Positions 60,259 to 64,000 of a stretch of 64,000 bases of DNA are shown one piece after another; position 1 is the first letter of the stretch, and the number at the start of each line of letters is the position of its first letter. Source of the stretch: Paragordius varius. Lineage: Eukaryota > Animalia > Nematomorpha. The stretch covers positions 992,001 through 1,056,000 of the forward strand of contig OZ176059.1 in NCBI GenBank assembly GCA_964247055.1, read 5' to 3'. The notes under the pieces were generated by a model, which saw only the letters and a program-made list of their open reading frames with translations, did not search any database and was not told the origin of the DNA. Both the position numbers and the translations under genes were made by a program.

Positions 60259-62390
60259 GATTAGCCTATCGGGAAGTTGACGCTTGCGCAACGGGTATCT
60301 TCTTTCCGGGTTTAGGTTTTCTACTACAACACTCTAATTAAGGGTACTTTCATCCATTGATAGGTGAGATTGCGTAGTGGTTTCCGAGGTTTCTGGGTTG
60401 AAGGTGGTGTCCACGGTAGGTTCTGGGGTTTGAGACCGCGGTAACGACTGGCTGACAAGAATCGAGGGAGATGCTGTATCAGTGTCTCTATCGAGATGCT
60501 CTAATCGTTCGCGTAGCTGATCCGCGTGTTTTCGGCTAATTCCCTCCTCGTCTTGAACTTCATAAGAAAGAAGTTCTCTTCTTTTTATAATATATCCCTG
60601 CCTCCACCCCTTATTCAACTCATTTTTTATTCAGATAGGTTGATTGGGCTGAAATTCGCGGCGTGGCTCTGCTTCATGCTCTATAAATTCGGACGGGGTC
60701 GACTTTACCCACGAGATAGGGTTGTGTACTTGACGTTTTAGGAACAAAGCGGAGGGGGTTTCTTTTATCGACGCGTGGAAGCTTGTACTGTAGGAATATA
60801 AAACACCGTTCATGGCTTCAAAGGCACAATCATTGACTCGCTTTAGTGGAGTAATATTTGGTTTTCAAGGTTTTTATCACTCTTTCTACCAACCCGTTGG
60901 TCTTTGGGTGATAGGGTGTGGCTCGGATGTGTTTAATATTGAAATTTTGTAACACCAATTCGAATTCTTTTGATGCGAAGTGGCATGTCAGTTACGATTT
61001 GTCGAGAAAATCCAAGGGCAAAATGCTTTTCTAGGCAATTTAGAATGATCTAAGTCAAAATCACTTTGAGCATATCCACCTCCAACCTAGCGAGTAGCGC
61101 TATTGATAGTTACCAACCAGTAATAACCGTCGACTGGGCCAGCAATATCGATAAGTAGCTGTTCCCATTCAGCGTATTAAAATTCCATTTATAGGATGGG
61201 TTTTCGGGAGCATTGGGTCGGTTGACTTGACATGCCTCGCAATTTTCTACCCAACGAGCGAGATCGTTCTCTATGTCGGGCCAGAATACCGAACTGCGGG
61301 CCTGGGATTTCATGGTATTTAACCCATTGTGTCCGGCGTGTAGGAGCTTTAGAATAGGGTTTTGCATTGCGCGTGGAATTACTAAACAATCATTCAGGTA
61401 AAGAAGCTTGTAATAGTTTTGTAGGTCGTTTTTATATATGCTAAAGGGTTTGAGAGCCTCATCCTCTCAATTGTTTGTCATTAAAGCCGTCTTAACTTTA
61501 TTGAGGACATTATCATTCATAGTAGCTTCCTCAACAGTTTTCTTGTTGATATCAAAAGATTTCAACGATAGAAAACGAATATGTTTGGTGGCCGCATCAT
61601 CCATCCTCGTCATAACCGCTGTTAGCTACGGGCAGTCTGGATAGGGAGTCCGCCAAATTTTATTGACCTTTCTTTCAATATATATCATAGTCAAATTCCA
61701 TGGACTTATATTTCCACCTAAGTAATTTCGAATTACTAATGTTATAATATCTCTTCGCCTCCCAAAAAGGCCCACTAAGGGTTTGTAATCATTTAAAAAC
61801 TCGAAATGCCTTCCGTATATAAAGTACTTAAATTATTCTAAAGTGAAAATTACCGCCTTGGCTTCTCTTTCGATAGTGGAATATCCTTTTTCCGCTAACG
61901 AACATGTCCGCGAAGCGTAGAAGATAGGACGTTTTCATTGCGGGGTTGTATGAAATTAAATTGCTCCAAACCCCTTAATTGAGGCATCTGTTTCAATACA
62001 CAGGGGGCACCTTTTATTAAAAGCCATTATAATAATTTTTTGCCCTAGAAAATTCATTTTCCTCTGCCTGTGTCCGCCTCCATTGTGAATTTTTTCCGCA
62101 TAACTTGTGTAAATTAGTTAGATTGGGGTAAATTTGGTATAAAACCTTCATGGAAATTAATCAATCCTCAAAAAGATCGCAATTCAGTTTTATTTGATGG
62201 TGGGCATTTTTGAATGGCCTCTAATTTTTCATCGGTAGGTTAAATATCTTTCCCAGAGATTACATAACCCATGTATTACCTCGGGAATCGCCATTTGGAG
62301 TTTATCCTTGCGTAATCGCAATCCGGCCTCTTGTAACCGGCTTAAAACAACCCTTAGTCTTTTATCATGTTCCTCGCAAGTGGCACATAG
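60256..62390 (-). pseudogene. pol: Ty3/gypsy pol remnant: C-terminal half of RT, RNase H, integrase
   Basis: RT: EEHDKRLRVVLSRLQEAGLRLRKDK..YMGYVIS..PTDEKLEAI..ELRSF.GL. RNase H: ETDAS..GFGA..IFYASRT..EKGYSTIEREA. Integrase: HHCC LLHAGHNG..ARSSVFWP..CEACQ, a degraded DDE core and C-terminal WRQG..SYEV..RKHADQLR. Many stops and frameshifts. Confidence 0.9.
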
Positions 62391-63587
62391 AATTCCTATT
62401 AACAAGGGCTAACTTTGCTTGCCGCTGTTCATTGTAAGGTATTAATGATGCTTTCTGTACAGCAAGAGACAACATATCCCTGACATGAGTCTCCATCTTT
62501 GGCAATATTCTGGTCATGTAGTCTGTCACTGTCTTTTCATAAGGTCTGTTTAACTCATTTGTGAACCAATCACCTTTTGAGGCTAGCGATTCTCCCTTTG
62601 CCAAGTCCTTTAAACATAAATTATAGATTCTGTTCAATAACTCTCTTTGCAGGAAGGCTTAGTACGAATTCTTCTTCTGTCAAAAGATAGGCAAAGTTTT
62701 TATACAATTGATCCCCGGTTGTAGGGAACACGTCAACTAATTTCTCGCAAGTAACTCTGTTCATTGAAATGGTATTATCGTCCCATGTGTTGTTCTTTGA
62801 TGAAGACCACTTTTTGAATAATTATCACCAAGCAAACACAGGGGAAAATTACTAATCTGCAGATCGTGTTCCTGAGATTAGATCATCCCAATGTATGGCT
62901 TACCTTCAATTCGTCTACTTGCCTCATACAATTTTTTAAGTTCTTCCTTCCATACTTGTCCGGCCGACTTTAGAAAATCATCTCCCAAGCCTAATATGGA
63001 ACAATCAAATGTCACACTCTGAATATGGTAGTGCTATAAACCAACAATAACTGAGTCACCAGGGCTTTTTCCCAGTCACAATAATAATAAATCTTCCAGA
63101 GTTTGAGAGAAGAATAATCATGACCAGGTATGATATCTTCTTCTTTTATTGTTCTAGAGTAGGTTTCCTCTCTATCTCGAAGGAGGACCCATCCTACGAT
63201 TTCTGCCACTGTAGAATTACCAATCAATCCTCCTTCTCCTAATGCTTTCATGCCAATTTCGAATGCAGAGTCAGCTAGTAATTGTGCCCCACTTAAAGTA
63301 ACTGCACTAGAGCATCTCTTGGCTATCTGTTTATAAGCTGTTTCTTTGATAGTGTACGCTGGAGCTAGAGCACATATAGCTGTTACGACCAAGAAATCCC
63401 GAAGGGAGTCTTGATGTGAGCCTGTATACTTAGTCCTAGTTATAGAGCACCTATCACTTTCTATGGTTGTATAGTACTGATTTACCTGGGCCCATATATG
63501 AGGATATATTAAGAGAAGGACTGTAAGAACCTTCCACACAATACTTTCCTGAGACGTACGCACAGTCAATGACCGGATTTTAGTTAT
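62390..63587 (-). pseudogene. Endogenous viral element: decayed nucleoprotein-like gene of a negative-strand RNA virus (Mononegavirales/Jingchuvirales-like)
   Basis: Joining frames gives about 400 aa (track ORFs 63012-63569 and 62365-62637 plus intervening frames). It has at least three frame changes, stops at 63036-63034 and 62880-62878, and a probable ATG>ATA start at 63587. The core VIVGL..SILGL..WKEELKKLYEASRRIEGKPYIGMI.SQEHDLQISNFP resembles the GL..EL..L..PY..(F/Y)P pattern of mononegaviral N. Intronless and less AT-rich than host DNA. Confidence 0.62.
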
Positions 63588-63625
63588 CTTTGTAACTTAC
63601 AAAATTAAAACTTATTCTACTCCCT

Positions 63626-63644
63626 CTGTTGCTTTTTTTATACC
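63626..63644 (-). promoter_or_regulatory. Viral gene-junction-like signal: gene end TAT(A)7, intergenic GC, gene start AACAG
   Basis: Minus strand reads GGTAT AAAAAAA GC AACAG AGGG, about 50 nt after the upstream stop and about 40 nt before the N-like frame; closely resembles the vesiculovirus-type junction TATG(A)7-NN-AACAG. Confidence 0.68.
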
Positions 63645-63690
63645 TAATATAAATATATTAAGAGACACTCTAGATGAGCAGAACATTACA

Positions 63691-64000
63691 TCATTTGTAT
63701 TGGTACATATACCAAGAGAAGATTTCCACACGCTTAAATACTACTTTGTGCATCCAGTCATGAAGCATTCTGTGAAAAAATTGATCTTTTTTGATTATGG
63801 TACCTGGTGTATTCCAATATAGAGATGGACCTATCTCAATTGATAATAAACTTGTAAATCCTTCAGGGAAGTCCAAAAAGACATTTGATTGTTTACTGAT
63901 ATTGGTAGGAGACCCAAATGCGATCATATCTATATCAACCCAACAATTTGTGTTAGCAAGATGTCTTGATATATTACCCACTTGTTTGATGCAATTCTTC
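63691..64000 (-). CDS. 3' end of an unidentified, probably viral ORF upstream of the junction (open to the window edge)
   Basis: Stop-free from 63999 to TGA at 63693-63691 (KNCIKQVGNISRHLANTNCWVDID..WYMYQYK); intronless, same composition as the N-like gene, followed by a gene-end-like signal. Confidence 0.5.
   Translation of the reverse strand, partial: KNCIKQVGNISRHLANTNCWVDIDMIAFGSPTNISKQSNVFLDFPEGFTSLLSIEIGPSLYWNTPGTIIKKDQFFHRMLHDWMHKVVFKRVEIFSWYMYQYK

Follow-up and report, generated by a model that had tools for sequence, protein, structure and literature searches.

The window, by which we mean the whole 64,000-nucleotide stretch of Paragordius varius DNA analyzed here, ends in a run of broken minus-strand frames that lies against a retrotransposon. 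The question is whether these frames are the remains of an RNA virus and, if so, of what kind of virus and by what route they arrived. A sequence-only reading had proposed a near-complete nucleoprotein (N) gene from a divergent, endogenised negative-strand RNA virus. The less AT-rich, frame-broken character that it described was evident: 62387-63563 has 39% GC (26.6% across positions 1-57000) and is divided among four minus-strand frames, which change near 63030, 62800, and 62650 (Table 1). The longest stop-free frame runs for 194 codons, a length matched by none of 2,000 simulated sequences, and the single in-frame stop falls at 62878-62880, inside piece B. Between the junction signal and 63251, the homologous frame contains no ATG. 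The viral fragment encodes no intact protein.

Table 1. Features at the end of the window (window positions; ".", no strand).
Feature	Position	Strand	Recognized by
Primer-binding-site-like TGG, then interrupted gag-like frame that includes a CX2CX4HX4C knuckle	59300..60074	-	direct reading
Polypurine tract at 60256-60247; single LTR-like segment of 169 nt, bounded by TGTAA...TTACA	60075..60256	-	direct reading
3' part of decayed Ty3/gypsy pol: end of reverse transcriptase (RT), RNase H (RH), integrase (INT)	60257..62386	-	Pfam
Virus/gypsy junction inside RT	62386..62387	.	RVT_1 and contigs
Piece D: 90 stop-free codons reaching the gypsy junction, without alignable U1 homology	62387..62658	-	
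Piece C: probable continuation, with a short, weak match to U1 451-465	62624..62802	-	
Piece B: adjoining frame, homologue of U1 347-426 (PY/FP core), one in-frame stop	62803..63036	-	
Piece A: homologue of artovirus ORF I/U1 173-347 (presumed nucleoprotein)	63027..63554	-	phmmer, HHalign, profile
Gene-end/gene-start-like signal TAT-A7-GC-AACAG	63626..63645	-	pattern search
Frame U: stop-free over 102 codons and still open where the window ends, likely viral	63691..64000	-	

When piece A was searched against 1.84 billion representative sequences using phmmer, two matches reached an E of ≤1e-3. The sole credible one was a crayfish protein, XP_053644330 (E 1e-4, 30% identity); the other, a bacterial Ig-repeat protein, was rejected as a low-complexity, three-repeat alignment. 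XP_053644330 in turn matches ORF I (U1) of the peropuvirus PpNSRV-1 by BLASTP (E 1e-41, 31% over 283 aa). We built a profile from these two proteins, with no letters of the window in it. HHalign against this profile gave a probability of 95.6 and an E of 1.3e-8 for piece A and an E of 1.1e-4 for piece B. Among 642 six-frame chunks, the profile produced four matches, all inside pieces A and B and contiguous, with profile positions 237-412 on A and 411-488 on B. Its score on piece A was 39.1 bits, compared to at most 6.4 bits in 20 shuffled sets, but this score is not fully independent because XP_053644330 was chosen using piece A. Piece B was absent from the query that found XP_053644330; no shuffle out of 1,000 was as good as its match to that protein, and 4 of 1,000 were as good as its match to PpNSRV-1 ORF I. 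With PpNSRV-1 ORF I alone as the query, piece A was the top match in the window (E 0.003-0.004). Joining the frames in 81 combinations, with X at the breaks, gave a top nine that all read A and B in identical frames (63-64 bits, with 38 bits for the next best).

Together, pieces A and B (63554-62803, about 250 aa) are collinear with residues 173-426 of PpNSRV-1 ORF I, and piece A is 29-31% identical to artovirus U1-type proteins. An endogenous viral element should resemble a viral protein and lie in host DNA; on the first point the fragment is, judged by these alignments, homologous to an RNA-virus protein. This agrees with the proposal that the sequence was endogenised from a divergent negative-strand RNA virus and includes a gene of N type. 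The measles- or rhabdovirus-type affinity that had been suggested gives way to Artoviridae (Mononegavirales) as the nearest relatives found, in a direct comparison limited to one real virus sequence, that of PpNSRV-1. Of the motifs read from the sequence, EELKKL, KPYIGMI, ISNFP, and the N-terminal LAPAYT..KQIAKR all occur and can be aligned to artovirus U1, but VGL lies outside the homologous frame, since homology keeps to the preceding frame as far as 63027. The frames can be joined into about 400 aa as proposed, but homology extends over only some 250 of these, or U1 173-426 of 620, and 62802-62387 aligns weakly or not at all. Piece C reached an HHalign E of 0.067, with 38 of 500 shuffles as good, and its best local match on the whole protein was noncollinear. 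Since the first ~170 residues of U1 are without a counterpart (none was found in the window for residues 1-172) and 62802-62387 is poorly alignable, the claim of near-completeness is unproven.

On the other side of the junction, Pfam recognized RT_RNaseH (E 4e-19), Integrase_H2C2 (E 9e-14), and rve_3 (E 1e-4); RVT_1 matched weakly and from profile position 158 only (E 0.11), and the gag-like frame had no Pfam match. Viral DNA stands in place of the 5' part of the gypsy RT, on the same strand, and gypsy GC (40%) is close to that of the viral part. Contigs of other gypsy copies depart from the window sequence at 62386 in all four of the sequencing runs compared and continue into unlike sequence. 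Summed contig depth in run X1 was 4,000-11,000 for gypsy and 333 for the flank, with the viral part about tenfold below gypsy. A 207-nt contig spans the junction (62333-62539) in runs X1 and X2, from one sample, and the intergenic flank 57612-59227 is also present, free of differences, in the run with this contig. The junction contig, the flank in the same run, and the broken frames indicate that the fragment lies in host DNA. No contig ran from viral sequence into unique host DNA. Runs X3 and X4, under other organism labels, contained exact or near-exact pieces at a depth of 2-5, which we did not count as orthologous insertions, and runs X5 and X6 had no cover at 63542-64000 and are uninformative about absence. 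No RNA run was listed as containing the sequence. A mei-P26-like gene of animal type was also recognized. The sequence-only reading had not described the fusion inside the gypsy RT.

We consider it quite probable that this locus is a decayed genomic copy of ORF I, the presumed N gene, from what its sequence suggests is an undescribed artovirus-related virus, joined to a truncated gypsy element, likely by a template switch during gypsy reverse transcription. Synthesis would have started at the LTR, passed integrase and RNase H, and jumped at 62386/62387 to positive-sense viral RNA. That template would have been the antigenome or a read-through RNA and not a single-gene mRNA, because the copy crosses the gene-end/gene-start-like signal into another open frame. 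The order virus-RT-RH-INT-LTR-gag may reflect the opening and integration of a one-LTR circle or, alternatively, two tandem elements with a common LTR. In mosquito cells, virus-LTR hybrids are described in circular DNA as products of copy-choice (PMC6797480), and accounts of artoviruses place them in ovaries, with vertical transmission and a probably nuclear habit (PMC7011699, PMC6394706).

A second, inverted copy likely lies just beyond the window end. Contigs from a single sample (runs X1 and X2) link 63554 through an inverted joint to sequence beyond 64000; in the same runs the N part has about twice the depth, with two variants at 62510-62696. A later fold-back duplication would have placed this copy there, and any present role of the locus would be as a putative small-RNA source. 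The inverted copy is absent from the sequence-only reading.

In run X5, from a second sample, one contig fuses gypsy to viral sequence at 62549, the two being separated by 37 other letters; at least one DNA-level rearrangement has thus affected the junction region. This different fusion point, together with the inverted duplication, which also suggests DNA-level rearrangement, would suit an independent insertion of viral cDNA (e.g., by a LINE or DNA repair) into an existing gypsy element, deleting its 5' pol with no template switch. We regard this as somewhat unlikely given that virus and gypsy share a strand with a clean break inside RT, that the order downstream is PPT-LTR-PBS-gag, and that the viral 3' end carries no visible poly(A) tail.

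Upstream of piece A, a stop/start-like signal and another ORF had been noticed, and both were recovered. A7-GC-AACAG has a single match in the window (63639-63626; 0.17 expected; present in 16 of 100 shuffles), and a 102-codon frame on the same strand lies beyond it. The junction had been called rhabdovirus-like. VSV-type signals consist of a gene-end TATG-A7 and a gene-start AACAGnnATC (PMC6636387). The corresponding pattern TATR-A7-NN-AACAG had no match in the window allowing up to one mismatch, and the junction of PpNSRV-1 itself also finishes with AACAG following an A-rich tract, so that description was not upheld. The signal agrees with the PpNSRV-1 termination motif at 11 of 14 letters, a level found at 45 places in the window with 36 expected. 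It fits artovirus signals as well as those of VSV and is not diagnostic. Frame U has 34% GC and no transmembrane stretch (maximum hydropathy, 0.85); 22 of 2,000 simulations reached its 102 codons, and searches returned no Pfam family and no homologue for it. We believe that it is likely viral. An alignment of frame U to XP_053644330 was equaled by 1 of 1,000 and 3 of 3,000 shuffles, yet by 341 of 3,000 on the N-terminal part alone; this homology was not accepted because it overlaps the part of XP_053644330 matched by piece A and because of the weak N-terminal score.

Ahead of N, an additional open frame with a stop/start-like signal would also be expected if the fragment were the N of another Monjiviricetes lineage, chuvirus-like or unclassified, with N placed after another gene and its likeness to U1 due to shared ancestry only. 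Chuviruses are described with N after G or L (PMC4384744), and the ~30% identity to U1 and the missing first 170 residues point the same way. We think this quite improbable: frame U is without the transmembrane stretch expected of the end of G, and no other viral N was matched among the 1.84 billion representatives, Pfam, or PDB. Pfam gave no viral family in any piece or frame, in XP_053644330, or in PpNSRV-1 ORF I; sequence searches of PDB gave nothing meaningful, and neither resource matched a rhabdovirus or paramyxovirus N at E ≤10. In a Foldseek search of BFVD with XP_053644330, the sole match at E ≤1e-3 was PpNSRV-1 ORF I (E 2.9e-4, 26% identity), a second peropuvirus protein stood at rank 15, and both viral N-like rows with >20% identity were peropuviruses. 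The PpNSRV-1 match was driven by sequence (TM 0.19).

Other searches returned little. The predicted structures (pLDDT 34.8 and 36.0) were too poor for judging a two-lobed helical N fold; with these low-confidence models, Foldseek gave piece A no match at E ≤1e-3 and no artovirus, and PDB fold searches gave no meaningful match. Word-indexed protein searches found no match among 1,191 candidates for frame B+D and recovered XP_053644330 alone among the ~8,000 candidates listed, but they say little because even PpNSRV-1 escapes them. Viral contig scans yielded no relative or PpNSRV-1 only, depending on the query; metagenome contig scans yielded no relative, a contig scan did not find the LsNSRV-1 primer, and an Atlas search had no usable match. 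None of nine frames from the window was present in an exact look-up. No L (RdRp) sequence was recognized within the window.

That the ORF is a gypsy accessory or env-like gene, or a host pseudogene, is hardly credible despite its gypsy strand and GC content, because the other copies, some ten times deeper, diverge at 62386, the ORF interrupts RT, and the protein homologous to it is a viral ORF I product. The proposal had staked itself against a best match to a cellular or retrotransposon protein; the top leads, by sequence and by Foldseek, were instead artovirus ORF I, and the ORF is absent from the other gypsy copies.

A decayed artovirus-related ORF I joined to gypsy is a familiar type of viral fossil, although the virus behind it is unusually distant. 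The Artoviridae, little-studied RNA viruses of invertebrates, form a small family with two genera and 9 species, to which the 2024 round added 4 (PMC12451637), and a genomic copy at ~30% identity would represent an unsampled branch that entered the host germ line. Together with the crayfish gene model, it suggests that U1-derived fossils sit unrecognized in animal genomes. The sharp break in RT would be a natural case of the template-switch route known from cell culture, and should the upstream frame and signal prove viral, the order of genes is unlike that of all artoviruses described in the papers cited here. A fuller scenario would have an undescribed artovirus-related lineage in which N is not first, is without the ~170-residue N-terminal part of U1, and is preceded by a small, separately transcribed gene; its antigenome would have been captured on a one-LTR gypsy circle, and the fold-back repeat would yield a putative antiviral hairpin RNA, possibly in a host group without known artoviruses. 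It is unlikely that all of these elements hold together.

Artoviridae have an unsegmented genome of ~12 kb ordered U1-U2-U3-G-L; U1, the leading gene, encodes 610-660 aa. By comparison, ~1.6 kb is retained here, U1 1-172 was not found, and another open frame occupies the upstream position that in PpNSRV-1 is taken by a leader of 152 nt. Both features could stem from a gene order of another kind or from rearrangement during integration. The fragment shares with peropuvirus ORF I/U1 the motifs FP.I, LAP.YT, I.RR, V.D/EV, LL.Q..LVY, and P(F/Y).G and the Y.I.N core. A nondiagnostic A-rich signal that terminates in AACAG also lies close to the gene in both. It differs in that piece A is only ~29% identical, U1 1-172 is unrepresented, and the fragment is broken genomic DNA. 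The role of artovirus ORF I as nucleoprotein is itself deduced from gene order (PMC5344506, PMC6394706).

XP_053644330, the "uncharacterized" product of Cherax quadricarinatus LOC128696930, is U1-like and represents this type of viral gene in another host genome. It is annotated as uninterrupted and covers nearly all of U1, whereas the window fragment is broken, and its low identity (25-31%) to the fragment or PpNSRV-1 implies a separate virus and a separate insertion. N fossils beside retrotransposons are common. ORF I-like host-annotated proteins are described in Daphnia and Dendroctonus (PMC6394706), and artovirus-related RdRp elements in Lepidoptera (PMC12548735). The virus-Ty3/gypsy hybrids described in Aedes likewise have disrupted viral frames fused to gypsy (PMC6797480), and the mononega- and chuvirus elements described in arthropods are likewise viral fragments joined to LTR retrotransposons (PMC4384744). 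Unlike these, the fragment has an Artoviridae-like N source and a likely fold-back duplication.

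We examined the minus-strand sequence at 62387-63596, which comprises four open pieces (A to D) with the frame shifting from one to the next. The GC content of this stretch is 39%, versus 26.6% in positions 1-57000 of the window, and that of the neighbouring gypsy element is 40%. The length of piece A was matched in none of 2000 composition-matched simulations, and that of the upstream open frame U (102 codons) in 22 of 2000.

Features of the putative viral segment and adjoining gypsy element
Feature	Position	Strand	Description
Piece A	63596-63012	-	open frame, 194 codons
Piece B	about 63036-62803	-	open frame interrupted by one stop
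Piece C	62821-62624	-	open frame
Piece D	62658-62387	-	open frame
TAT-A7-GC-AACAG signal	63645-63626	-	sole A7-NN-AACAG in the window
Gypsy-side features, continuing after integrase	59300-62386 with pol part	-	polypurine tract, LTR-like segment, PBS-like motif, gag-like frame

The viral pieces had no match in Pfam or PDB. A phmmer search of 1.84 billion representatives with piece A gave two matches at E<=1e-3: an "uncharacterized protein" of the crayfish Cherax quadricarinatus and a bacterial Ig-repeat protein, the latter discarded as a low-complexity match. Piece B, which was outside the query, aligned to the crayfish protein immediately after piece A. The crayfish protein is in turn similar to ORF I (U1, the presumed nucleoprotein, N) of the peropuvirus PpNSRV-1, compared as natural sequence (E 1e-41). 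In 15 region-by-frame tests with the crayfish protein, A and B beat all 1000 shuffles, U was equalled by 1 of 1000 but with a non-collinear placement, and 12 tests were not significant. With ORF I alone, piece A was the top match in the window (E 0.004); in the same tests of 1000 shuffles A was equalled by none, B by 4 and C by 2 (at a non-collinear position), with 12 of the 15 again lacking significance.

A profile built from ORF I and the crayfish protein, itself selected via piece A, was tried on 642 six-frame chunks and hit none but A (39.1 bits) and B, whose matches adjoin each other along the profile; 20 shuffled sets scored at most 6.4 bits and the reversed profile 1.8 bits. HHalign placed piece A at U1 173-347 (probability 95.6, E 1.3e-8), piece B at 347-426 (E 1.1e-4) and piece C at 451-465 (E 0.067), while D and U gave no alignment to U1. 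When the pieces were joined by X and read through in 81 frame combinations, those with A+B took the top 9 places at 63-64 bits, the next scoring 38, and the frame chosen for C and D hardly affected the score. Piece A is identical to PpNSRV-1 at 45/155 positions and to the crayfish protein at 51/167, these two sharing 42/171 in the same region. Judged by sequence similarity to the one true virus compared directly, PpNSRV-1, the segment is a real, artovirus-related fossil, and the negative-strand RNA virus origin proposed by the sequence-only reading is supported, with A and B collinear with ORF I.

The measles-like N motif of that reading fared less well: its VGL lies outside the homologous frame by both profile and HHalign. 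In piece B, PY and FP are spaced much as in the C-lobe motif of mononegaviral N, which serves as a lead rather than as a test. Artoviruses are not mentioned in the available main text of PMC10888975.

The signal lies after the stop of U and before the start of A; no ATG occurs in frame A from the signal at 63630 to 63251. A7-NN-AACAG was present in 16 of 100 shuffles of the window. A rhabdovirus-like junction had been suggested, but the VSV pattern (consensus from the available text of PMC6636387) was unmatched even allowing one mismatch. The signal agrees with the PpNSRV-1 termination motif at 11/14 positions, a level reached at 45 places in this AT-rich window (36 expected), and the PpNSRV-1 ORF I/II junction likewise ends in AACAG. 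The signals of LsNSRV-1 are TAAT-A5 and GAAACAA (PMC6394706, in part). Given the frequency of 11/14 agreement, the unmatched VSV pattern and the shared AACAG, the signal is consistent with an artovirus junction and has no diagnostic value. Should it be real, N would start near U1 residue 170, behind another gene, unlike the described artoviruses, in which U1 is first. For frame U, family, contig and alignment searches found no homologue, and it has no transmembrane stretch.

Downstream on the same strand, Pfam identified the end of a gypsy reverse transcriptase (RT; a weak match beginning only at profile position 158), then RNase H and integrase. Next come a polypurine tract and the single LTR-like segment (169 nt, TGTAA...TTACA ends), behind which lie a TGG motif resembling a PBS and a disrupted gag-like frame that carries a zinc knuckle. 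Over 59300-62386 the gypsy parts are permuted (3' half of pol, PPT, one LTR, PBS, gag), an order that a one-LTR circle would give, or else tandem elements with a shared LTR. Short repeats of very high copy number, probably MITE-like, lie at about 57450-57640 and 59200-59280 (summed X1 depth 257,000-454,000 versus 333 in the flank), and one of them truncates the gag-like frame.

Public contigs were compared (11 runs listed, 3 studies, 6 runs with matching sequence); the best-matching run may come from the sample that the window itself was sequenced from. In run X1, one contig covered the flank 57612-59227 (depth 333), and summed depth was 4000-11000 over the gypsy part and 470-1100 over the viral part. 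In this gypsy copy, viral sequence stands in place of the 5' part of RT. Most likely, the gypsy RT changed template to positive-sense viral RNA, and the chimeric cDNA would then have been inserted into germ-line DNA, to decay and later be duplicated, presumably as a fold-back; a circle may have been an intermediate, and any role for small RNAs would be putative. For Sindbis virus and Ty3/Ty1 elements, a template switch has been shown by circular DNA from mosquito cells (PMC6797480, in part). Germ-line access would follow from the ovarian presence and vertical transmission described for artoviruses (PMC7011699; PMC6394706, in part). A fair rival is that independently made viral cDNA was inserted into a pre-existing gypsy copy. 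An ORF common to the gypsy family, an alternative raised by the sequence-only reading, is largely refuted, because contigs of other gypsy copies diverge from the window at 62386 in all 4 runs compared and a 207-nt contig spans the virus/gypsy junction in X1 and X2. One X5 contig has its gypsy/virus junction at 62549 rather than at 62386, and contains a longer gypsy-like part and a shorter viral one.

In X1 and X2, from one sample, a contig extends beyond 64000 and then comes back to 63554 on the other strand, with 58 letters on its short side; in X2 it is 664 long, 504 of them on the window. A second, inverted copy therefore probably lies some 100 nt past the window end, around a loop of about 550 nt that would contain the signal and frame U. 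X2 depth was 359 for the N part and 189 for the fold-back contig, about twice, although depth is not copy number. The N part also shows two variants at 62510-62696, and in the second sample (X5, X6; same organism label) the N part occurs in variants a few percent different.

The host is an animal of AT-rich DNA, and elsewhere in the window are a gene like mei-P26 that encodes an NHL domain and long runs rich in asparagine (6082-8334, +; PDB 7nyq, E 7e-33), a 634-codon rhodopsin-family GPCR exon (41879-43783, +; Pfam 7tm_1) and a queuine tRNA-ribosyltransferase exon (54595-54825, -; Pfam TGT). A frame at 11339-11779 (-), with no Pfam match, presumably resembles the end of an RTE-type LINE.

The crayfish locus, LOC128696930 (XP_069951354), is homologous to artovirus ORF I along almost its entire length (E 1e-41), and one of its models places the U1-like part behind the RRM domains of an RBM46-like protein. 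The locus could be an artovirus fossil, perhaps an intact one, that has gone unrecognised, or else a fusion made in annotation.

In the available passages of the literature on Artoviridae endogenous elements, we found no description of an artovirus N fossil. The sources, each available in part, do describe EVEs derived from artovirus RdRp in Lepidoptera (PMC12548735) and ORF I-like host proteins in Daphnia and Dendroctonus (PMC6394706), and fossils of N type next to LTR elements are already known (PMC4384744).
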